Source: Nanobdellati archaeon
GTDB lineage: Archaea > Nanobdellota > Nanobdellia > UBA10117
Direction of reading: 5' to 3'
Length of the DNA: 58,368 nucleotides
Assembly: GCA_016182015.1 (NCBI GenBank)
Contig: JACOYC010000010.1
Span: 1 to 58,368 of the forward strand
Below are positions 3,272-58,368 of this stretch, piece after piece. A model generated the notes under the pieces. It did not search any database and was not told the origin of the DNA. It saw only the letters and a program-made list of their open reading frames with translations. Position 1 is the stretch's first letter, and every line of letters starts with the position of its first letter. A program made the position numbers and the translations under genes.

Positions 3272-6200
3272 TTAAGTATTTTTATTCTGTTCTTTTTTGC
3301 GCCCAGCTGGCTCAGTGAAAAGCCAGTTGAATATTTTCCGCCTGAAGCCCTGCCAGTTTCTTTTGGTTTCTTTTTGCGCCTGCGGGGCTTGCCTGCCAAA
3401 ACTGACAGGATTCAATTTTGGCCAGCGGAATAATCTCCGCTTGGGTTTTGCGGCTTCTACTTCCTTTGCGTACTTCTGGTAGTATGCCTTCTTCTGATCC
3501 TCAATTCTACGGGTTAAGCTACTACTTAATTTAGATTTGTATCTGCGCGCGAAGCTTGCGGCGAAAAGAATTGCCAGCGCAGCTATGACAAACGCGTAGG
3601 CTGGCAAGCCTAATTTTTTTACCATTAACGCTGATTTTATCTTTGGCCCGATATTTTTTATGGCGCCAAAGTCCGGCATTTTTAATCCTGCGAAACCTGT
3701 CAGCGGGCTGGCAGAAGCGGCTGTCACGTTTGCAGTTTCATTAACTATAGCAGACTCTGCAGCGATTTCCGCCCCTGATTTTTTCTTACCTGCAACTGCG
3801 AAGTACGATAGGCCGGGCGAGCTTGCCTCAAATGTTGCATATTCCTGCGTTTGCGATATTAAATCAGTTGGCAATTCCTGCCATGAAGTTGTGTGGCGGT
3901 AAAGCCTTATCGAATTTTTGTTTATCAGGTTCAATTTTATCCACGACTGCGGGACTTTGAATTTTATTTTCGCATTCGATATTTTTGATGACTCTAAATT
4001 TTCAGCGCTCAGCGCAGAAAAAGCATATGTAACGCCGGGCGGATTGGGACTTTCAGGGTTGGCATCAAGCTTTTCTATTATTAGCTTGACATTTTCCGCG
4101 GAACCGCCCGCCGTAACAGAAAATTCTGTTACTGCGAAACCTGCTTTTGAAGTTGTTACTGCTATTGTATCACCTGCGGCTACCTTTAGAAAAAAGCTTT
4201 TGGCTGTGTTGTCATTTAGGCCGCCGCCGCCCGAAGATTCGCTTGCTGACGAACCTGAAGATGTGCCAGAGCTGCTGCTTGAGCTGCTGCTGGAACTGCT
4301 GCCGCCATTGCTTATTTTAAAATCGCTTGCTGACGAAGCCGCGCCTACAAGCTCGCCATCTGTTGCGTTTACTCTTAAGCGATATGTATCGCCATTATTA
4401 ACGCCTTTTGTATTCCAGTCATACCGCCCGTCGTTTGCCTCGCCGGAGGCCAGCTGCGCCCATGTACTTCCGGAATTATTTGAGTAGTAGATTGTTATTG
4501 TAAGCGTATCATCTTCCGGGTCTGTTGCATTCCAGGTTATTGATTTATCGCCGCTCCATGTTTCGCCGCCAACCGGAGCAGTTAAGTTGACTGTGGGATT
4601 TTCGTTTTTGTTATTTATTATAAATGCTGTATCTGATGTGTCGTTAATAACGCCTGTTCCATCTGTTGCGTTTACAAATATATTATAATTTCTCCCGTCG
4701 GCAATTGCCGAAGTATTAAATGTAATATTATACACGCTGCCAACCGCGGCTGTCGAATTGCCTATGAGTGTGTAGTTCGTGCCGTTAGTATACCAGAAGT
4801 ATACTATCAGTATATCGCCCTGGCCGTCTATATCTGTTACCGATGCGTTTATTACTATAGAATTTGACAGCTTAGTTGATGTGTTCGGATATATGACTGT
4901 GGCTAATGGCGCCGAATTTTGTATCGTTGTGTTGCTCGAGTTTACATTTGCGCCAAAGTCCAGCCCGTCGTTCGGCAGCACAGAACACATCCAAACCTGG
5001 TTTTTAACTGCATAAGATGCATTTATCAATGTGAGATTTTCAAAAGTGCTGTTGCGTGTTCCGTTCATGTACCAGCTTATCATTGTATTATTATTTATGT
5101 CACCATCTGTATCAGAAAATGTATAGTTGCAGTTCATGGTTGTGTTTGCCACCGGGCTTGCCGGCTGGATTGTTACATTTGAGGCTGACGGCTGCGTGTT
5201 GCTGAGATTGAATACAAATGCTGTTGAATTAAAATTGTCAAATATATCTGACGCGTAAATAGTTACGTTGGCCTGCCCGGCAGGCCAGCCAGTGGTATTA
5301 ATCTGGTAAAGATTATTGCTGCTGTTCTGCGATAGAGATGTATTTGTTCGGTTGTTTAAGGAATAAGTTGCTGTAAAAATTGCCGTGTCATCTGCAATTG
5401 TAACATTAATTGGCGCGCCGCGCGTTATGCCTGAGTTGTTGCCGGGCGCTACTGTCATGTTCGGGTATTTTGAATCAAATGTGGCAAGCACGCTTAAGAT
5501 GTTTATTCTGGAAAAGTTCAGGCCTGAAGATGCGTCGCTTATATTTACTCCGTTGTCTTTGAACAATTTTTCTGCTGCGGTTGAATTTGTTGATGCGCCA
5601 AATTTTGATTTATAGAACTGATAGAATAATGCAAATGCTGCAGCCGCATGCGGCGCGGACATTGATGTGCCTGACTCGACAGAGTAGTTGCCCGCCCATG
5701 CCGTTGAGTTGATGGCCACTCCAGGGGCAAGCAGGTCAGTTATGTTATTTCTGTTGTACGTGGCGGAATCACCTTTTGTCACTGCGCCTACCGCTGTCGT
5801 GTTTGTTATGCAGGCCGGCGATGCGATTGCAGTCGTGTTTCCGTCATTGCCTGTCGCGGCCAGCACTGTTATATTAACAGCAGTCGCGTTGTTTATCGCT
5901 TCTGCAAAAGTCGCGAAATCCGAATCGCAGAAATTTGTGTAAAGATTGTCTGTCCCGAAACTCATCGTTATAACTGATATATTATATGCCGAGGCGTTGC
6001 CGATGCACCACTTGACACCTGCAATCGCGTTTGCAGTCGAGCCTGTGCCTGCCGAATTCAAAACTTTAACAGCGGCTATGTTTGACCCGGGAGCGATTCC
6101 TGTAGCGCTACCGGACGCCGCAACTATGCCTGCCACGTGCGTGCCGTGCCCGTTGTCATCGTACGGATCTGCATCATCGTTCACAAAATCAAAGCCGATA

Positions 6201-8193: not shown

Positions 8194-8326
8194 GTGGCTA
8201 AATTACCACTTTCTCTTCTTTCAGCCGCAAAATCGGCTGGCGCTTTGGTTGCATTTGGCTTTTGCCAAACGCAACAGCGCAAGTGAATACTAAAGCTTCT
8301 GTGGCTTTTACCACTTTCTCTTCTTT
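8194..8326. repeat. direct duplication of the surface-protein gene 3' end flanking a hairpin insert
   Basis: TTACCACTTTCTCTTCTTT at 8203-8221 and 8308-8326, each preceded by GTGGCT. Insert hairpins include CAGCCG..CGGCTG and TTTGGC-TTTT-GCCAAA. Confidence 0.85.
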
Positions 8327-13188: not shown

Positions 13189-13229
13189 GGTATACTGCCA
13201 GTATACTTCTAGTATACTTTAAGTATACT
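13189..13229. repeat. AGTATACT palindrome array, 4 units at exact 11-bp period
   Basis: GTATACT starts at 13190, 13201, 13212 and 13223. A T5 run follows. Confidence 0.9.
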
Positions 13230-21916: not shown

Positions 21917-22020
21917 ATATAATTAACAATAGTTAAGTTTTTAAATGTTTTGGCGTTGCAACGAAACAGAACTAAATCGCATGAGCTGGCAAATTTTTAC
22001 CAAATTGGAATCATTACATT

Positions 22021-22174
22021 TGTTCAACATCGTGTATGCCGCTCTCCTTCAAACTTTTTGAGACCAAAAAGTTTGATCAAAAAGTCCCGCCTTCGGCGGA
22101 ATAAAATATTATTATAAACTATTTATTAAGCTAATCAGTTATACCTGTTCAACATCGTGTATGCCGCTCTCCTT
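22021..22174. repeat. 29-bp direct duplication of the guaB 3' end flanking a 96-bp hairpin insert
   Basis: TGTTCAACATCGTGTATGCCGCTCTCCTT at 22021-22049 and 22146-22174. Insert contains CAAACTTTTTG-AGAC-CAAAAAGTTTG and CCGCC-TTC-GGCGG. Confidence 0.9.
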
Positions 22175-23617
22175 AAGGCCTGCTGGCGTTATCCTGACAA
22201 ACTCTGCGCGCTTCCAGAGCTCTTCTATTGTTCTTGCGCCAACATAGCTCATGCCTGAACGCAGCCCGCCGGCCAGCTGCACAACAACCTCTGCAACGCT
22301 GCCTTTGTAAGGGACTGTCACCTGGTCTGCCCCCTCAGAAACATAATCGCCAAGCACTTCTTCGCTTCCGCTTTCCTCTGTTTTTTTTCTGTCGATGTGC
22401 TGCGAGAGCGATGCCGAGCCGCGGTATAGTTTTGACCTTCGGCCGTTCCACATAACTATCTCGCCGGGCGATTCGTCCGTGCCTGCGAATAGCGAGCCAA
22501 ACATGCCTGCTGACGCGCCGGCGGCGATTGCTTTTACAAAATCACCTGGCTGGCGCATTCCACCATCCGCGATTATTGGTACATTGCCTGCGCCTTTTTT
22601 TGCCCACGTGATTGCGGTAAACTGCGGCACGCCAGAGCCTGCCACTAATCTTGTTTTGCAGATTGTGCCGTTGCCAATGCCAACGCGAATTGAGTCCGCG
22701 CCGGCTGCTGCTATATCTCTCGCGCCTTCCTCTGTCGCAATGTTGCCTGCCATCAGGTCTGTGCCCGGGAATTTTTCCCTGAGCCTGCTGACCGCATCGA
22801 GAGACACCTCAAGATGCCCGTGCGCAACATCAACACAAATCAAATCTGCGCCGGCTTTTATCGCTGCCTCCGCCCGCTCGAGATAATCGCCCCGAATGCC
22901 GACTGCCGCCCCAACCACCAAACGGCCCTTCTTGTCGCGCACGGCCAGCGGGTTGAGCCTGTTCGTCAAATCCTTTGCAGTTATCAGCCCGACCAGCCTG
23001 TCGGCCGCATCAACAAGAGGCAGCTTTTCTATGCTGAATTTCCTGAAAACTTCCTTTGCCTGCTCGAGCGTTGTCTCTGGCCTGCCAACAATTAATTTTT
23101 CGCGCGGAGTCATTATCTCGCTTAATTTTTTCCCTTTGTCGCTTTCAAATTTTATGTTGCGGCTTGTTACTATGCCGAGCAGCTTGTTTTCCTGATTTAC
23201 AACTATAAAACTATACACGCCAATTTTGTGCGCGGTCTCCAATGCATCACGGACTGCTGCTTCAGGCGAGATTGTTATCGGCTCATCAATAACTAAATTC
23301 TCCGCGCGTTTTACCTTCAGGACTTCTTCTACTTCTTCTTTGATTGTCATAAACCTGTGAATTATTCCAAGACCGCCAGCCCGCGCCATCGCAGTCGCCA
23401 TGCCTGCTTCCGTTACCGTGCTCATGTCCAGCGAAATTGCCGGCACGTTGATTGTTATATTTCTAGAAATCTTGGCGCGCAAATCAACATCCCTGCGGGA
23501 CATGACTGATGAGCGCTTTGGCACGAGCAGCACATCGTCAAATGCCAGCCCCTCGCGAAGCCCCTCCATGCCTGGAGCAGTATAAAAAGATTTTAAAGTA
23601 TTTCTATTGTCTGACAT
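22139..23617 (-). CDS. guaB: IMP dehydrogenase (with CBS pair)
   Basis: FDDVLLVP, a CBS region, and GIGNGTICKTR / GGMRQPGDFVKA catalytic blocks. Start set at MSDNRN (23617). Confidence 0.9.
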   Translation of the reverse strand: MSDNRNTLKSFYTAPGMEGLREGLAFDDVLLVPKRSSVMSRRDVDLRAKISRNITINVPAISLDMSTVTEAGMATAMARAGGLGIIHRFMTIKEEVEEVLKVKRAENLVIDEPITISPEAAVRDALETAHKIGVYSFIVVNQENKLLGIVTSRNIKFESDKGKKLSEIMTPREKLIVGRPETTLEQAKEVFRKFSIEKLPLVDAADRLVGLITAKDLTNRLNPLAVRDKKGRLVVGAAVGIRGDYLERAEAAIKAGADLICVDVAHGHLEVSLDAVSRLREKFPGTDLMAGNIATEEGARDIAAAGADSIRVGIGNGTICKTRLVAGSGVPQFTAITWAKKGAGNVPIIADGGMRQPGDFVKAIAAGASAGMFGSLFAGTDESPGEIVMWNGRRSKLYRGSASLSQHIDRKKTEESGSEEVLGDYVSEGADQVTVPYKGSVAEVVVQLAGGLRSGMSYVGARTIEELWKRAEFVRITPAGLKESGIHDVEQV

Positions 23618-23619
23618 AC

Positions 23620-23928
23620 ATGGTAAATATAATAGCTGCAAAAGCAGGCGAGATTGCGCAGGGCGGGAGAAAAATTGTAGAAGTAAGTGGCAGGGAGATA
23701 GTTTTATTTAATTTGGGCAACAAATATTATGCAATAGAAAATATCTGCCCCCATCAGGCCGGCCCGGTAGGCGAAGGCGAGATCAGCGAGGGCGATGTCG
23801 TGGCCTGCCCGCTGCACGAATGGCGATTCAACATAAAGACCGGCCAGAGCCCAGACTTCTCGGGCATAGCCGTAAAGACCTTTCCAGTAAGGGTTGAAAA
23901 CGGAAATGTAATTCTTGCGATGGACTAA
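23620..23928 (+). CDS. Rieske [2Fe-2S] domain protein (NirD-like small ferredoxin)
   Basis: CPHQAGP ... CPLHEWRF Rieske ligand motifs. Start at MVNIIAAKAGE. Confidence 0.8.
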   Translation: MVNIIAAKAGEIAQGGRKIVEVSGREIVLFNLGNKYYAIENICPHQAGPVGEGEISEGDVVACPLHEWRFNIKTGQSPDFSGIAVKTFPVRVENGNVILAMD

Positions 23929-25914: not shown

Positions 25915-25944
25915 AGTATACTGACAGTATACTAGTAGTATACT
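25915..25944. repeat. AGTATACT palindrome array, 3 perfect units at 11-bp period
   Basis: Units at 25915, 25926 and 25937. The array fills the E1beta-E2 intercistronic spacer. Confidence 0.9.
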
Positions 25945-26911
25945 AATAATTTATTATATTTTCTACTGCCTTTGTAATTTTATCTGCATTTGGAAAATAA
26001 TAGTGCTCGAGCTTCGGCAGCGGGATAATTATATCAAGGCCAGTAACCCTGGTGACTGGCGCCTTCAGGCTAAGGAAGGATTTTTCCTGAATTAACGCAG
26101 AAAGTTCCGCGCCAAATCCGCAGGTCTTTTGGGCTTCGTGCACAACGATCGCGCGGCCGGTTTTCTTTACTGACGCGGTGATTGTTTCTATGTCGAGCGG
26201 TTTCAGGCTCCTCAGGTCAATTACCTCGCAGCTGGCCTTTGCACCTTCAGCAGCCTTCAGGCATTCCTGCACCATCGCACCCCAGGCAATAAGTGTTACA
26301 TCTGTTCCCTCGCGCCGGACAATCGCCTTTCCGATTGGCACTGTGAAATCATTTTCAGGCACCTCTTCCTTTATTGCGCGGTAGAGTTTTTTTGGTTCCA
26401 GATAAATTACCGGGTCTGGGTCGCGGATCGCTGCGGACAGCAGGCCCTTTGCATCGTATGGCGTGCTTGGCACAACAACCTTCAGGCCGGGAATGTGGCA
26501 GAAAAAAGTTTCCGGCGATTCGGAGTGGTGCTCGAGCGCGCGGATCCCGCCCCCGCATGGTATGCGCAGGACAAGCGGGCACGTGAATCTGCCGCGGGAG
26601 CGGTTGCGGATTCTGGCCGCGTGGTTGTAAAGCTGGTCTATCATCGGAATCGCGAATCCGTCAAACTGCGCCTCTGCAACTGGCTTTATGCCGCCGACCG
26701 CCATGCCAATTGCGGAGCCGATAATTCCGGTTTCTGCAAGCGGCGTGTCAATCACTCTTTCGGGCCCGTACAGCTTCAGCAAATTTTCAGTTGCCCTGAA
26801 CACACCGCCGTCTACCCCAACATCCTCTCCAAGAACGATAACTTTTTTGTCGCGCTTCATCTCCAGCCTTAGCGCGAGATTGATTGCCTGAACTAGCGTT
26901 AATGTTGCCAT
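25943..26911 (-). CDS. 2-oxoacid dehydrogenase E1 beta subunit
   Basis: Transketolase-like pyrimidine-binding and C-terminal domains, for example VIVLGEDVG and RVIDTPLAE. Confidence 0.93.
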   Translation of the reverse strand: MATLTLVQAINLALRLEMKRDKKVIVLGEDVGVDGGVFRATENLLKLYGPERVIDTPLAETGIIGSAIGMAVGGIKPVAEAQFDGFAIPMIDQLYNHAARIRNRSRGRFTCPLVLRIPCGGGIRALEHHSESPETFFCHIPGLKVVVPSTPYDAKGLLSAAIRDPDPVIYLEPKKLYRAIKEEVPENDFTVPIGKAIVRREGTDVTLIAWGAMVQECLKAAEGAKASCEVIDLRSLKPLDIETITASVKKTGRAIVVHEAQKTCGFGAELSALIQEKSFLSLKAPVTRVTGLDIIIPLPKLEHYYFPNADKITKAVENIINY

Positions 26912-26930
26912 ATTTAATATTATTTAATAC

Positions 26931-27100
26931 TATTTAATTGTTCTTTTAGATTCCAATCCATCGGACCCGCAGGGGAGAAGGCTTTCTCCCCTTCAGGTGG
27001 ACGCTCACCCTGATTCCCCTCTTCTTGCCTGCGGCAGAGTAATTTATCCATTTTAATTTTCCTTTATTTTATTTAATTGTTCTTTTAGATTCCAATCCAT
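26931..27100. repeat. 31-bp direct duplication of the E1alpha gene 3' end flanking a 108-bp hairpin insert
   Basis: TATTTAATTGTTCTTTTAGATTCCAATCCAT at 26931-26961 and 27070-27100. Insert contains GGGGAGAA-GGCT-TTCTCCCC and CCGCAGG..CCTGCGG. Confidence 0.9.
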
Positions 27101-28117
27101 TTCTGAATATGTAAAATTGAAGATTGATTCAACGGGCTGCGGTTCTATGCCTTCTGCAGCTTTTACTGCTTCGCTGATTTTTTTCTGGATGTCTGCTTCG
27201 AGTTTTTTCTGGTAGGCCTGCGTCCATAATTTTTTTTCTTCCAAGTATTTTTGCAGCCGCGTTATCGGATCTTTTTTCCGCCACTCTTCAACCTCTTTTG
27301 CGCTTCTGTATTTTGACGAATCGTCAGCGGTTGTGTGGTCGCCAAGCCGGTAGGTAAACGCTTCTATGAACGCCGGCCCTCCGCCGGAGCGCGCAGAGTT
27401 TACAGCGTCCAGCGTTGCCTTGTAAACCGCAAGTACGTCGTTGCCGTCAACCTGAATTCCTGAAAAGCCGTACGCGATTGCTTTTTGTGCCAGTGTTTTG
27501 GACGCGGTCTGCTTTGAAAGCGGAACTGAGATTGCATACTGGTTGTTGTTGCACAAAAAAACAACAGGCAGCTTCCATGTGCCGGCAAGGTTCATCGCCT
27601 CGTGGAAATCGCCTTTTGAAGTCGCGCCATCGCCAAGATAAACAAGGACAGCAGACTTTTTTTTCTGGTATTTTAGCGCGTATGCCATCCCAACCGCGTG
27701 CGGCAGCTGCGTTGAGACTGGCACGCAAATCATAAAGTTGTTTATGTTTTCAGGAATCTGCTGGCCGCGCTCATCGCCCATCCAGTAGAGCAGATATTTT
27801 TCTGGCGGAAGCCCGCGCACCAAATGTGAGCAGATCTCGCGAAAGTAAGGAAACATCCAGTCTTCCTGCTGGAGCGCGAACGCAGAGCCGGCCTGCGCCG
27901 CTTCCTGCCCTTCAGAACTCGGGTAGGTGTACATCCTGCCTTCGCGCTGCAGGCTCAGGCAGGTCCTGTCAAGGAGCCGGCCATAAACCATTGTTTCGTA
28001 AAGATACAGGACGTCCTTGTCAGACAGTTTTGGCATCAGCCTTCCGTCTACCTTGCCCTGCTCGTTAAGAATCTGCAGATAGGGCACTTCAAACCTTGCA
28101 AGCGATTTCAGTGGCAT
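27053..28117 (-). CDS. 2-oxoacid dehydrogenase E1 alpha subunit (TPP-dependent)
   Basis: The TPP-binding block GDGATSKGDFHEAMNLAG...VVFLCNNNQYA is typical. Confidence 0.93.
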   Translation of the reverse strand: MPLKSLARFEVPYLQILNEQGKVDGRLMPKLSDKDVLYLYETMVYGRLLDRTCLSLQREGRMYTYPSSEGQEAAQAGSAFALQQEDWMFPYFREICSHLVRGLPPEKYLLYWMGDERGQQIPENINNFMICVPVSTQLPHAVGMAYALKYQKKKSAVLVYLGDGATSKGDFHEAMNLAGTWKLPVVFLCNNNQYAISVPLSKQTASKTLAQKAIAYGFSGIQVDGNDVLAVYKATLDAVNSARSGGGPAFIEAFTYRLGDHTTADDSSKYRSAKEVEEWRKKDPITRLQKYLEEKKLWTQAYQKKLEADIQKKISEAVKAAEGIEPQPVESIFNFTYSEMDWNLKEQLNKIKEN

Positions 28118-28145: not shown

Positions 28146-28218
28146 CGTTAACTCGCCTCAAAGGGCGAGTTAACGGAATGGAAAAATCCGCACATCTCAT
28201 GCTTTTGCGGATTTTTTC
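28146..28218. repeat. two hairpin modules in the pdhA/grx divergent intergenic region
   Basis: CGTTAACTCGCC-TCAAAG-GGCGAGTTAACG (12-bp stem), and GGAAAAATCCGCA..TGCGGATTTTTTC, the same stem family as in copies D and E. Confidence 0.8.
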
Positions 28219-28244
28219 ATAAGGTTTGTTTAGAGCTTTGTTTA

Positions 28245-28375
28245 GGCTTTGTTGAAAATCTCTGTTTTTGTCAGAATTATGCCTTACTCACTTCGTTCGC
28301 CGCCGCCGTTTGAAGCTAAAGCTTCAAACATAAAATGGCGGCGACAGTCATAATTCTGACTCTTTCAACAAAGCC
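28245..28375. repeat. 131-nt nested inverted-repeat (MITE-like) element
   Basis: Four concentric stems: GGCTTTGTTGAAA/TTTCAACAAAGCC, GTCAGAATTATG/CATAATTCTGAC, CGCCGCC/GGCGGCG, GTTTGAAGC/GCTTCAAAC. Confidence 0.8.
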
Positions 28376-28390
28376 CTTTATTTAGCAAAA

Positions 28391-28674: not shown

Positions 28675-29095
28675 TCTGCAGCGGATGCTGCCTGCGAGCA
28701 TTCTCGAGAGTGACTAAATTTTCTAATTCTATTGGCGGCCGGGCATCTTTAAAATTCACAATAACACGTACTCGCGTGCTGTCTGGTTGTATAGCACGAA
28801 CTACTAAAAGTCGTTCTACATTTGAGCTATATGTTTCAAATCGGCGGCCTGAGCTTGAGTGGCCAGGCTCACCCAACACTAATAGTCCTGCCTCTGTAAG
28901 TTTATTAACGAGTCTGTAGGCTACAGCTATTGGTATGCCAGTACGTGCCGATATATCCTGCGTCCTGATCGGTGTTTCGCCAGCAGTGTGTGCATGGACT
29001 AGTGGATAATATGGATGTTCTACTAATGACACAATTCTTTCTGCGTACTCTTGTGTTTGTCTGGCACGTTCTGCATCATCCATAGAAAATTCCAA
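28622..29095 (-). CDS. winged-helix transcriptional regulator
   Basis: wHTH segment TQDISARTGIPIAVAYRLVNKLTEAGLL plus a C-terminal beta-rich domain. Architecture matches 29334..29705. Confidence 0.5.
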   Translation of the reverse strand: MEFSMDDAERARQTQEYAERIVSLVEHPYYPLVHAHTAGETPIRTQDISARTGIPIAVAYRLVNKLTEAGLLVLGEPGHSSSGRRFETYSSNVERLLVVRAIQPDSTRVRVIVNFKDARPPIELENLVTLENARRQHPLQIKKPVSPSATDPPGIQL

Positions 29096-29134
29096 GCAGA
29101 TAGCTTTTTAAAATTATAACATATATAAATTTAT

Positions 29135-39435: not shown

Positions 39436-40327
39436 TTACTGGAACCAACATATCTGCAGCTACCAATCCTAAAACAAGATTATACTGCGGCAGGAAAAAA
39501 CTGAATGCGACGGCTGCGGCTGCCGCGATTATTCCGAATATAATCCTGCCCTTCTGCGTGTCTGGTGATGTTTTCGGCTCGGTAAGCATGAAAAACCCGA
39601 AGAAGTAGGCCGCGCTTTGTGCCACCAGAAAATCTATTATCTGGCTTGGAAAGTTAAAAACTGCTGTTAGCAGAATATAAGTAAGTAAAAATGTAATTGG
39701 CAGCTCCAGCCGCCTCAGTTTGTAAATTACAATAAATCCCAAAATTACCGGCAGCCACCATATCACGCTGCCTTGCCAGCCATGGGAAGCCGGCAGGAAA
39801 AAAGGAACGATGGCCAGCGCGAGATTTGCCGGATTGAAAATATGTTTATTGTGGGCGCGAATTATATGTTTCAGCGCTATCGCCAAGGCTGCTGCGATCG
39901 CAACTATATACAACTTGTTTGCCGACAGAACTAATGTTATTATAAAACCAGTTACAATTGGTGATTTCCAGTAAAAATCAAAATTCTTGTGTTTTACGTA
40001 GTTTATCGCGGCGTCCAGTATGACTGCAGTTGCGATCGCTATGACTGCGGCCATAACAATTTGCTGTGATTTTGAAAAATAAGCTGAAACTATCGTGATA
40101 ATAACCATCGCCAAAATCATTAAATTGTAAACATCGGAAAAAAAGTTACGTATTACATCAAATGGCCTGTGCTCCGCCTCAAAAATCGCTTCTTTTGCCC
40201 TTGCAGTGCCAATATCCTTTCCCAAATATTCTATGGTTCTTGTTTTAACTTCCCCGCCCTTTCTTTTCGATTCTTTTAGATAGTAATATCGCCTGCCTTT
40301 GATTTTCCTTTTTTCTATGTATGCCAT
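39419..40327 (-). CDS. polytopic membrane protein (weak RnfD/NqrB-like NPA segment)
   Basis: Basic N-terminus followed by about 8 TM helices. Contains HIFNPANLALAIV. Confidence 0.55.
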   Translation of the reverse strand: MAYIEKRKIKGRRYYYLKESKRKGGEVKTRTIEYLGKDIGTARAKEAIFEAEHRPFDVIRNFFSDVYNLMILAMVIITIVSAYFSKSQQIVMAAVIAIATAVILDAAINYVKHKNFDFYWKSPIVTGFIITLVLSANKLYIVAIAAALAIALKHIIRAHNKHIFNPANLALAIVPFFLPASHGWQGSVIWWLPVILGFIVIYKLRRLELPITFLLTYILLTAVFNFPSQIIDFLVAQSAAYFFGFFMLTEPKTSPDTQKGRIIFGIIAAAAAVAFSFFLPQYNLVLGLVAADMLVPVINKFF

Positions 40328-40368
40328 TGCGAGTTACGTATTACATATTTCTGGGTTGCGTATTACGT

Positions 40369-40680: not shown

Positions 40681-40824
40681 GAAAAAATCCGCAAAACTCC
40701 GCCCTTTAGGGCGCGGGATACGCGGATTTTTCCATTCAGCCAAAATTCGTTTTGGCTGACCAGTCGAACTTTGTTCGAACTGTTCCTCAAAATCGCGGTT
40801 AAGCGAGCAGCGATTTTGAGTTAT
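40681..40824 (-). repeat. mosaic hairpin element, copy D (inverted relative to E/F)
   Basis: Its reverse complement shares ATAACTCAAAATCGCTGCTCGC, GTTCGAACAAAGTTCGACTGGTCAGCCAAAA..TTTTGGCTGAATGGAAAAAT with copy E. The last 4 nt overlap the ccdA stop codon. Confidence 0.85.
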
Positions 40825-44881: not shown

Positions 44882-44887
44882 TCAAAC

Positions 44888-45078
44888 ATAACTCAAAATC
44901 GCTGCTCGCACCTTATCCACGGACTAATGTCGAAAAATATTTTAATTTTTCGAGCACCTCGAAAATGCTTACGCATTTTCGTTGAGTTCGAACAAAGTTC
45001 GACTGGTCAGCCAAAACTCATTTTGGCTGAATGGAAAAATGCGGCTTAAAAGCCGGGGTTTTAGACCCGCATTTTTCC
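44888..45078 (+). repeat. mosaic hairpin element, copy E (five nested or serial hairpins)
   Basis: Bases 44888-44986 are identical to 58270-58368. The remainder aligns with the reverse complement of copy D. Confidence 0.9.
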
Positions 45079-45116
45079 ATAATAAACTTAATAAGGCAAT
45101 TTAGATAAAACCAATC

Positions 45117-58269: not shown

Positions 58270-58368
58270 ATAACTCAAAATCGCTGCTCGCACCTTATCC
58301 ACGGACTAATGTCGAAAAATATTTTAATTTTTCGAGCACCTCGAAAATGCTTACGCATTTTCGTTGAG
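58270..58368 (+). repeat. mosaic hairpin element, copy F (truncated by window end)
   Basis: 99/99 nt identical to 44888-44986. Confidence 0.9.

Follow-up and report, generated by a model that had tools for sequence, protein, structure and literature searches.

We analysed a 58,368-bp stretch of DNA (the window), which is the whole of contig JACOYC010000010.1 in assembly GCA_016182015.1 of a DPANN archaeon. Its genes include pdhA and pdhB (2-oxoacid dehydrogenase E1 alpha and E1 beta), guaB (IMP dehydrogenase) and a gene for a 1083-aa PGF-pre-PGF surface protein, which is S-layer-like. GC-rich hairpin segments lie across the stop codons of at least three genes, i.e. pdhA, guaB and the S-layer-like gene, within duplications that keep the genes intact, and this arrangement is real and unusual. 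The window proteins are closest to those of DPANN archaea, and the best match of pdhA comes from a 'DPANN group archaeon' metagenome-assembled genome with 93% identity. Our Pfam scan covered about 40 of the about 60 larger open reading frames (ORFs) of the window, and the guaB, pdh and Suf genes were identified from homologues. No tRNA or tmRNA genes were found in the window. The Rfam 15 covariance models gave no match at the gathering threshold over the whole window, and matches around the three inserts were at chance level.

Two related lineages are referred to throughout. L001 (GCA_016204275.1) has a pdhA that is 93% identical to that of the window in amino acids and 90-92% in nucleotides, and L003 (GCA_023245115.1) is 82% identical in amino acids. 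The lineage tree used is (((W,L001),L002),L003), where W is the window.

The pdhA-pdhB junction

The junction has the following features, where the proximal copy of the repeat is the one inside the present pdhA.

27053..28117, minus strand: pdhA, 2-oxoacid dehydrogenase E1 alpha, with the present end ...MDWNLKEQLNKIKEN* (ORF translation; Pfam E1_dh homologues)
27070..27100, minus strand: proximal exact repeat X, encoding MDWNLKEQLN (exact 31-mer)
27025..27069, minus strand: diverged part of the proximal copy, corresponding to the native tail, spacer and pdhB start (aligned locally to the distal side)
26962..27024, minus strand: foreign GC-rich core of 63 nt (absent from L001, homologous to the L003 core)
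26931..26961, minus strand: distal exact repeat X, with which the ancestral gene end begins (runs on into sequence identical to the empty site of L001)
26884..26930, minus strand: native tail (SIK, stop 26920-26922), 8-nt spacer and first pdhB codons, forming the distal half of the long duplication
26920..27051, minus strand: 43-codon ORF across the insert (MDKLLCRRQEEGNQGERPPEGEKAFSPAGPMDWNLKEQLNSIK*) (ORF list; L003 equivalent)
25943..26911, minus strand: pdhB, E1 beta (Transket_pyr and Transketolase_C in orthologues)

A first-pass annotation of this DNA had reported a 31-mer repeated at the pdhA end with a hairpin-rich segment inserted near the stop, and both observations were confirmed. 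An exact search found TATTTAATTGTTCTTTTAGATTCCAATCCAT exactly twice, at 26931-26961 and 27070-27100, against 0 occurrences in 100 shuffles as the chance control, and no further copies were found in the window even with up to 3 mismatches. On the minus strand the proximal copy continues from MDWNLKEQLN to KIKEN and a stop (27053-27055), and 108 nt lie between it and the second copy. The distal copy continues to SIK and a stop (26920-26922), followed after 8 nt by the pdhB ATG (26909-26911), just as had been read before. The hairpins quoted for the insert are also present. The inner one, GGGGAGAA-AGCC-TTCTCCCC, occupies 26972-26991, the outer arms CCGCAGG/CCTGCGG lie at 27028-27034 and 26967-26973, and an imperfect 14-nt inverted pair, CCGCAGGCAAGAAG / CTTCTCCCCTGCGG, is found a few nucleotides inside the ends. 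The GC content of the core is 63%, versus 16% for the target.

The extent of the duplication differs from the earlier description, in which a block of 19-31 bp regenerates the C-terminus around a 108-bp insert. Across the three sites the actual duplications measure 28-77 nt and span the stop codon, and at pdhA the foreign core is only 63 nt long (26962-27024), the rest of the segment being a diverged duplicate. The ~46 nt that follow X in the proximal copy (ATAAAGGAAAATTAAA-ATGGATAAATT-ACTCTGCCGCAGGCAA) are a diverged copy of the distal sequence ATTAAATAATATTAAATATGGCAACATTAACGCTAGTTCAGGCAA, which comprises the native tail, the spacer of 8 nt and ~9 codons from the start of pdhB; ~31 of 45 aligned positions are identical (p~0.002 for the window alignment, p~0.0025 for that of L003). 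The two tails align codon by codon; KIKEN* can be derived from SIK* by point changes, with the old stop TAA turned into GAA. The pdhA duplication hence covers ~77 nt, starting 13 codons ahead of the pdhA stop and reaching about codon 9-10 of pdhB, and its diverged proximal copy contains both the present pdhA stop (27053-27055) and the ATG (27049-27051) of the ORF that bridges the insert. A tandem duplication of the whole 139-nt unit was rejected, as the part of pdhB that follows about codon 10 shows no similarity to the core (p 0.6-1.0).

The bridging ORF begins 1 nt past the stop of pdhA, and 8 nt separate its end from the pdhB ATG. Its L003 equivalent has 49 codons, overlaps the pdhA stop as ATGA and meets pdhB at TAAAATG, and the ORF is intact in both filled pdhA lineages. 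The part of the peptide encoded by the core is poorly conserved between the window and L003, the ORF has no Pfam match, and no comparable ORF was found at the guaB and S-layer inserts. The ORF is probably a relay that keeps termination-reinitiation coupling and carries ribosomes over the insert to pdhB.

Empty and filled sites in related lineages

In L001 the pdhA gene ends in X, AGTATTAAATAA, 8 nt and the pdhB ATG (...LNSIK-TAA) with no insert, and this junction equals the distal copy of the window and the sequence following it, base for base. We therefore take the distal copy to be the ancestral gene end with a tight pdhA-pdhB junction, as the first-pass annotation had proposed, and the polarity of the insertion is thereby fixed. 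The two genes also overlap, abut or lie tightly together, free of an insert, in L034, L035, L036, L114 and L115, making six empty lineages with L001. The site is filled in the window, L003, L004 and an ENA contig.

The L003 insert sits at the same site in the same orientation with the same right boundary (...GCGGTTCCG|ATGGATT), and its core of 62 nt is identical to the 63-nt core of the window at 44 of 63 positions. The X copies of L003 differ at 8 of 42 positions, in 5 synonymous and 2 replacement changes plus a stop-codon change. Since this homologous filled allele was recovered in three independent assemblies of L003, including a Logan read assembly and the ENA contig, mis-assembly, raised earlier as a concern, is excluded. 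An exact-protein look-up of pdhB for strain variants of the window's own locus returned nothing. Import of the pdhA insert from an L003-like donor was rejected, because sliding-window identity is L001-like on both flanks of the window insert.

L002 (1060-1107) carries a different insert of 45 nt, three codons before the ancestral pdhA stop, which gives the new tail NSKL*. It consists of two perfect palindromes, CTCTAAAC-TGTA-GTTTAGAG and ATGTGGAAAC-AA-GTTTCCACAT, and X is not duplicated there. As a different hairpin insert is found at this place, the pdhA junction is a hot spot for such inserts. Another hairpin, GGATTGC-GGA-GCAATCC, lies in the decayed proximal copy of L003 (7049-7065) and was apparently generated where it lies, through inverted copying of GCAATC, a sequence derived from pdhB. 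This hints that in these genomes template switching makes palindromes locally where the DNA is unconstrained.

The guaB and S-layer sites

The second and third cases have the features listed below.

22133..22174, minus strand: proximal repeat, guaB end ...KESGIHDVEQV* plus 8 nt past the stop
22053..22132, minus strand: case 2 core, ~80 nt (absent from the L110 and L111 guaB ends)
22009..22049, minus strand: distal repeat ...KESGIHDVEQM* (sequence comparison)
8301..8326, minus strand: proximal repeat, end of the 1083-aa PGF-pre-PGF gene (KKRKW* plus AGCCAC)
8222..8300, minus strand: case 3 core, ~79 nt (orthologous core in L001)
8194..8221, minus strand: distal repeat, the ancestral end with a native terminator-like hairpin (AAGTGG..CCACTT plus T run) (L112 empty site)

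At guaB the duplication is 41 nt long and reaches 8 nt past the stop (...TAA(C)TGATT), with an exact block of 29 nt; the differences between the copies cluster at both ends of this block. The TTG and ATG-stop flanks of the distal repeat resemble alleles of other lineages. At 22087-22099 the core has the hairpin CCGCCGAAGGCGG with T5 after it, and a perfect hairpin of 11 bp, TCAAACTTTTT..AAAAAGTTTGA, lies at 22049-22076. The guaB genes of L110 and L111 have no insert, and the sequence after the distal copy is weakly homologous to the L110 sequence beyond guaB (p~0.05). The neighbourhood (21917-23641) is rearranged between close lineages, as seen when the window, L110 and L001 are compared: in L110 a convergent gene of 134 aa, which is missing in the window, overlaps the guaB stop, and in L001 guaB itself is missing at the corresponding position.

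At the S-layer-like gene the 28-nt duplication takes in the stop and the AGCCAC arm of the native hairpin, with an exact block of 19 nt. Its core has a 12-bp hairpin inside a GCGC clamp (8240-8280) and a hairpin CAGCCG..CGGCTG (8222-8239), and has nothing in common with the AT-rich native downstream sequence. L112 and L113 have no insert at this site, whereas the window and L001 do. In L112 (71% aa identity) the empty site (...AGAGAAGGTGGTAGTTTAGCCACTTCTTTTTATTTT; ...AGAGAAGGTGGTAG-TTTAGCCACTTCTTTTTATTTT) matches the distal copy of the window. The orthologous core in L001 is identical to the window core at 65 of 79 positions and includes one compensatory change of a G-C to an A-U pair. One pattern scan of viral contigs for the hairpin of this core gave no match.

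Overall, among the short-range direct repeats of the window three pairs stand far above the rest, with 31 nt (pdhA), 29 nt (guaB) and 19 nt (S-layer), and all three are 3' ends of minus-strand genes. The three duplications (~77, 41 and 28 nt) all span the stop codon and have a sharp left boundary. The foreign parts (63, ~80 and ~79 nt) are mutually unrelated in sequence and share no terminal motif. We scanned 3325 ORF ends in ~1 Mb of fetched loci, ~170 kb of them from the clade of the window, using a 27-nt window by which the 19-nt S-layer repeat is undetectable, and found comparable gene-end duplications only in the window and L003. A more sensitive scan of close relatives gave the same picture.

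The first-pass annotation counted three other genes with the same pattern; guaB and the S-layer-like gene conform at their 3' ends, and the third is a 5'-end variant. In this fourth case, an RnfD-like gene on the minus strand, a 15-nt repeat ATGTAATACGTAACT at 40144-40158 and 40332-40346 flanks 173 nt that supply a new in-frame N-terminus, MAYIEKRKIKGRRYYYLKESKRKGGEVKTRTIEYLG, and a third, partial copy, GTAATACGCAAC, lies just upstream. The ~45-aa N-terminal module heads 89 otherwise unrelated proteins in a representative library, among them Fic/DOC proteins and a protein that has the core domain of class II aminoacyl-tRNA synthetases, and it may be a portable N-terminal cassette.

Age and folding of the cores and homogenisation of the repeats

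Between the window and L001, core 3 shows 82% identity, where the flanking gene shows 81% and third codon positions show 69-71%. For core 1 the window and L003 agree at 70% of positions, against 51-52% of third codon positions. The cores thus evolve more slowly than synonymous sites and keep their stems, and we therefore regard these orthologous cores as old and constrained. Judged from two sequences per core, core 3 has one pair with compensatory changes and core 1 has two such pairs. In core 1 the register of the inner helix shifts, from GGGGAGAA/TTCTCCCC in the window to GGAGAACC/GGTTCTCC in L003, and the unpaired GAGCGT is conserved. The fold z-scores are -2.5 for pdhA (181-nt region), -3.2 for guaB and -6.1 for the S-layer site, and -4.9 for L003.

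Within genomes, the repeats of the filled sites evolve in concert. GAAAGT and TAA are found in both window copies of the S-layer repeat, whereas L112 and the proximal L001 copy have GAAGGT and TAG, and the decayed distal L001 copy retains GAAGGT with a stop that can no longer be aligned. The S-layer insert is older than the split between the window and L001, and hence the window copies must have been homogenised or regenerated later. Likewise, the two copies of the pdhB start agree within each genome, with ATGG.. in the window and ATGA.. in L003.

Enzymes and other hairpin DNA in the window

None of the ORFs scanned with Pfam has an integrase, transposase, reverse transcriptase or Cas domain (Cas1 included), and the inserts are too small to encode a recombinase. 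No second copy of any of the three cores was found in the window or in the ~1 Mb of fetched loci.

The window clearly holds other, mobile hairpin DNA in the form of a foldback and a modular element. A nested foldback of 131 nt (28246-28376, RNA fold z -8.6) occupies the divergent promoter region between a glutaredoxin gene and pdhA. L001 lacks this foldback, which is bordered by an imperfect direct repeat of ~10 nt, CTAAATAAAG / CTAAACAAAG, and whose left arm is 90% identical over 40 nt to L111 8862-8901, beside a Y1 transposase (PF01797) gene. The modular element is multi-copy, with copies at 44884-45080, 40690-40823 (minus strand) and 58270-58368, and its terminal palindrome occurs alone at 28178-28220. 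It starts with ATAACTCAAAATCGCTGCTCGC at or after stop codons and ends with the palindrome ATGGAAAAATSCGC..GCGGATTTTTYCAT, ~40-60 nt upstream of the next start codon. The assembly break is probably due to the copy that runs off the contig end. The palindromic octamer AGTATACT is present 10 times versus 0.36 expected, in triplets with 11-nt spacing at 25915-25944 (pdhB-E2 spacer) and 13200-13229, and also at 4798, 14606, 30742 and 42937; the triplets in these short gene spacers look like an operator-like array. A small gene with an IclR-like winged helix-turn-helix (28675-29134, minus strand) lies between the glutaredoxin gene and a zinc-ribbon gene, which are adjacent in L001.

Origin of the inserts

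We tentatively favour, with a probability of about 0.45, the reading that the inserts are old insertions which duplicated their own target across the stop codon, by fill-in of a staggered break or by a template switch, and whose stem-loops have been retained. A short foreign GC-rich segment (63-80 nt) able to form stem-loops would have been inserted long ago and fixed. The duplication may have been made from the target during insertion, when a long staggered break was filled in; by an alternative route, the polymerase could have left its template, copied ~60-80 nt from another place and then resumed upstream. Probably the original event only duplicated the gene end and did not replace it by an element-borne copy. 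The upstream copy would then hold a complete gene end, and the downstream copy the old end plus what had followed it, the start of pdhB or the native terminator. With both neighbours duplicated, nothing would therefore have been broken at birth, and the intact neighbours are probably the reason why only such events survive in a tightly packed genome. Afterwards the unconstrained halves would decay, as from SIK* to KIKEN* in the proximal copy, and in relatives also in the distal copy, with the core helices staying. The repeats would be homogenised in short tracts within genomes and would also permit precise loss of the insert. The stem-loops might be kept for a role at the RNA level, e.g. as a structure at mRNA 3' ends or between cistrons.

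Several points weigh against an origin by old duplicative insertion. The main one is that perfect blocks of 31, 29 and 19 nt adjoin flanks with ~34% divergence, a contrast not predicted by plain decay; it would need directional gene conversion or repeated re-insertion. A single ancient insertion at pdhA needs two losses on the tree, in L001 and L002. Three events in 58 kb, all at gene ends, are many for replication accidents. No donor for any core was found among matches of 10 nt or longer within 1.5 kb, or of 12 nt or longer across the window. The suggested RNA-level role draws its covariation from a pair of sequences per core.

An alternative hypothesis, close to the att-site logic proposed by the first-pass annotation, is a miniature element of 105-139 bp that carries its own copy of the gene end, integrates by a Campbell-type crossover in X and can be excised. 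X would be perfect as a recombination core refreshed in each cycle, and the remaining captured target copy would decay. This gives the best account of the perfect cores, which persist in the window while the orthologous copies of L001 and L003 have decayed. The layout is indeed prophage-like, running from a sharp left boundary through a perfect block to a diverged homologous block; the guaB differences flank the 29-nt core, copies within a genome are more alike than orthologues, and L001, the closest relative, is cleanly empty at pdhA. However, no recombinase candidate came out of the domain scan, and three targets with three unrelated, single-copy cores would need three recombinases or one that is programmable. 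The inserts are as diverged as their flanks, which argues for vertical inheritance with no recent integration, the proximal tails resemble decayed native tails, and DNA circles of ~100-140 bp have no known transfer route. An att-type origin is thus unproven and, in our view, doubtful. A related speculation is that hairpin cassettes of ~100-140 bp excise through the flanking repeat and re-integrate at the same gene end, which they would find by homology. The repeat core would be an address refreshed in each cycle, explaining the perfect cores, the ~34% diverged neighbours and the decayed 'dead' copies in relatives; it would require a structure-recognising or programmable recombinase encoded elsewhere in the genome, and we regard it as quite unlikely. 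Non-autonomous hairpin families resembling foldbacks or MITEs (miniature transposable elements with inverted repeats), mobilised by a transposase elsewhere in the genome and leaving unusually long and variable target duplications, also seem unlikely. The window does hold the mobile 131-nt foldback, which is related to the flank of the Y1 transposase gene in L111, and the multi-copy modular element, and core 1 has its imperfect inverted ends. The three cores themselves are single-copy in all loci searched and without common sequence or terminal motif, and duplications of 28, 41 and 77 nt misfit one enzyme with a fixed stagger. To our knowledge, Y1 transposition of the IS200/IS605 type makes no target duplication at all.

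For pdhA only, the insert could be a gene for a small protein (43-49 aa) formed from the duplicated junction, whose peptide ends in a copy of the E1 alpha C-terminus. The intact ORF in both filled lineages, its coupled start and stop contexts and the mostly synonymous differences between the X copies of L003 would agree with this. We regard it as improbable, as the core amino acids are poorly conserved and lack a Pfam match, guaB and the S-layer-like gene have inserts without such an ORF, and the conserved feature is the nucleotide hairpin. An assembly artefact, or a bulge-helix-bulge intron or other excision at the RNA level, is essentially refuted. It is true that an exact repeat of 31 nt equals a common k-mer size and that repeats could bracket an excised RNA. 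The same architecture with diverged repeats is nevertheless present in the three L003 assemblies and in the L001 S-layer gene, the exact blocks of 31, 29 and 19 nt do not correspond to one k, and there is neither a bulge-helix-bulge motif at pdhA and guaB nor an Rfam family.

If old duplicative insertion is the true origin, compact archaeal genomes with genes 8 nt apart or overlapping can still gain non-coding structure, and an insertion would be survivable only if it duplicated the end of the upstream gene as well as the start of the downstream gene. Their signature, a stop-codon-spanning duplication around a GC-rich stem-loop, would be searchable genome-wide. The sites would also offer dated examples of hairpin conservation and of short-tract concerted evolution in uncultured DPANN archaea, together with a relay ORF that preserves translational coupling. 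If instead the perfect repeat cores reflect ongoing excision and re-integration, they would point to undescribed, tiny, site-specific mobile DNA.

Comparison with known systems

Our literature searches did not find this pattern described, and we compared the inserts with several known systems. Some prophages and integrative elements enter gene 3' ends and provide a replacement end, such as e14 and phage 21 in icd of E. coli, and the integrases that target tRNA genes, including archaeal ones, belong here too. The inserts resemble them in leaving the gene intact with the displaced end downstream as a second copy, in having an identical block at both junctions beside a diverged homologous block, and in the empty sites of relatives. 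Unlike them, the inserts have only 63-80 nt of foreign DNA, unrelated cores, no integrase or other recombinase gene in or near them among the ORFs scanned, and a duplication that extends past the stop, at pdhA even into the next gene. The proximal tail of pdhA looks more like a decayed native tail than an imported allele; its alignment with the tail and the pdhB start native to this genome favours duplication in situ, an old captured copy being less likely.

Long direct repeats of variable length are also made by certain insertion sequences, namely IS1634, IS1549 and, in haloarchaea, ISH2. Those elements are autonomous or at least repeated and have inverted ends, unlike the inserts, and we know of none whose duplications span stop codons. 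GC-rich palindromes in AT-rich DNA are known as the GC clusters and double-hairpin elements of fungal mitochondria, which are sometimes inserted inside gene ends with the flanking AT sequence duplicated, as here; they are organellar multi-copy families with short flanking duplications. Fungal mobile ORFs that duplicate the C-terminus of a gene are also comparable. Replication template switching (fork stalling and template switching or microhomology-mediated break-induced replication, FoSTeS/MMBIR) yields templated insertions with flanking duplication as sporadic mutations. The inserts share with these a unique sequence, flanking duplications of variable length and the lack of an element-encoded enzyme, but they number three or four within 58 kb, lie without exception at gene termini, have long been retained and have conserved helices.

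Other classes were rejected as well. A CRISPR-like array made by off-target Cas1 integration would have repeats of constant length and spacers of ~30-40 nt, and does not fit repeats that vary from 28 to 77 nt, 'spacers' of 63-80 nt and the lack of Cas domains in the scanned ORFs. A diversity-generating retroelement, whose repeats of ~100 nt would differ at adenines, is at odds with the exact blocks, which show no adenine-specific differences, and with the lack of a reverse transcriptase in the same ORFs. A scan for the 3-4-3 motif of archaeal bulge-helix-bulge introns gave 0 candidates at pdhA and guaB, and only low-complexity purine/T-run pairings at the S-layer site. The defining boxes of integron attC sites, C/D-box and H/ACA RNAs and hammerhead-type motifs are absent, as judged by eye only.

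MITEs, foldbacks and the small mobile palindromes of prokaryotes include the Rickettsia palindromic elements, which enter coding regions (PMC2229807). The inserts are similarly small and hairpin-forming, have no capacity to code for a transposase, are flanked by direct repeats and are tolerated at genes. In contrast to MITEs they are single-copy in the window and the fetched loci, have internal hairpins only and no clear terminal inverted repeats at the ends of any of the three, and lie within duplications of 28-77 nt that vary in length, compared with the usual fixed 2-14 nt. The last group comprises REP and BIME sequences with their RAYT and the palindromic elements derived from IS200/IS605 (PMC3733652), which are similar in that stem-loops lie just past stop codons and a Y1 transposase gene is present in the related L111. 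These elements are multi-copy, carry a conserved tetranucleotide tag and make no target duplication, whereas the three inserts are single-copy in the loci searched, lie within duplications and have no shared tag of the GTAG/CGTC type. Because each of the families compared has at least one defining feature that the inserts lack, we assign them to none of these and describe them as a variant of duplicative small-element insertion outside the families compared.

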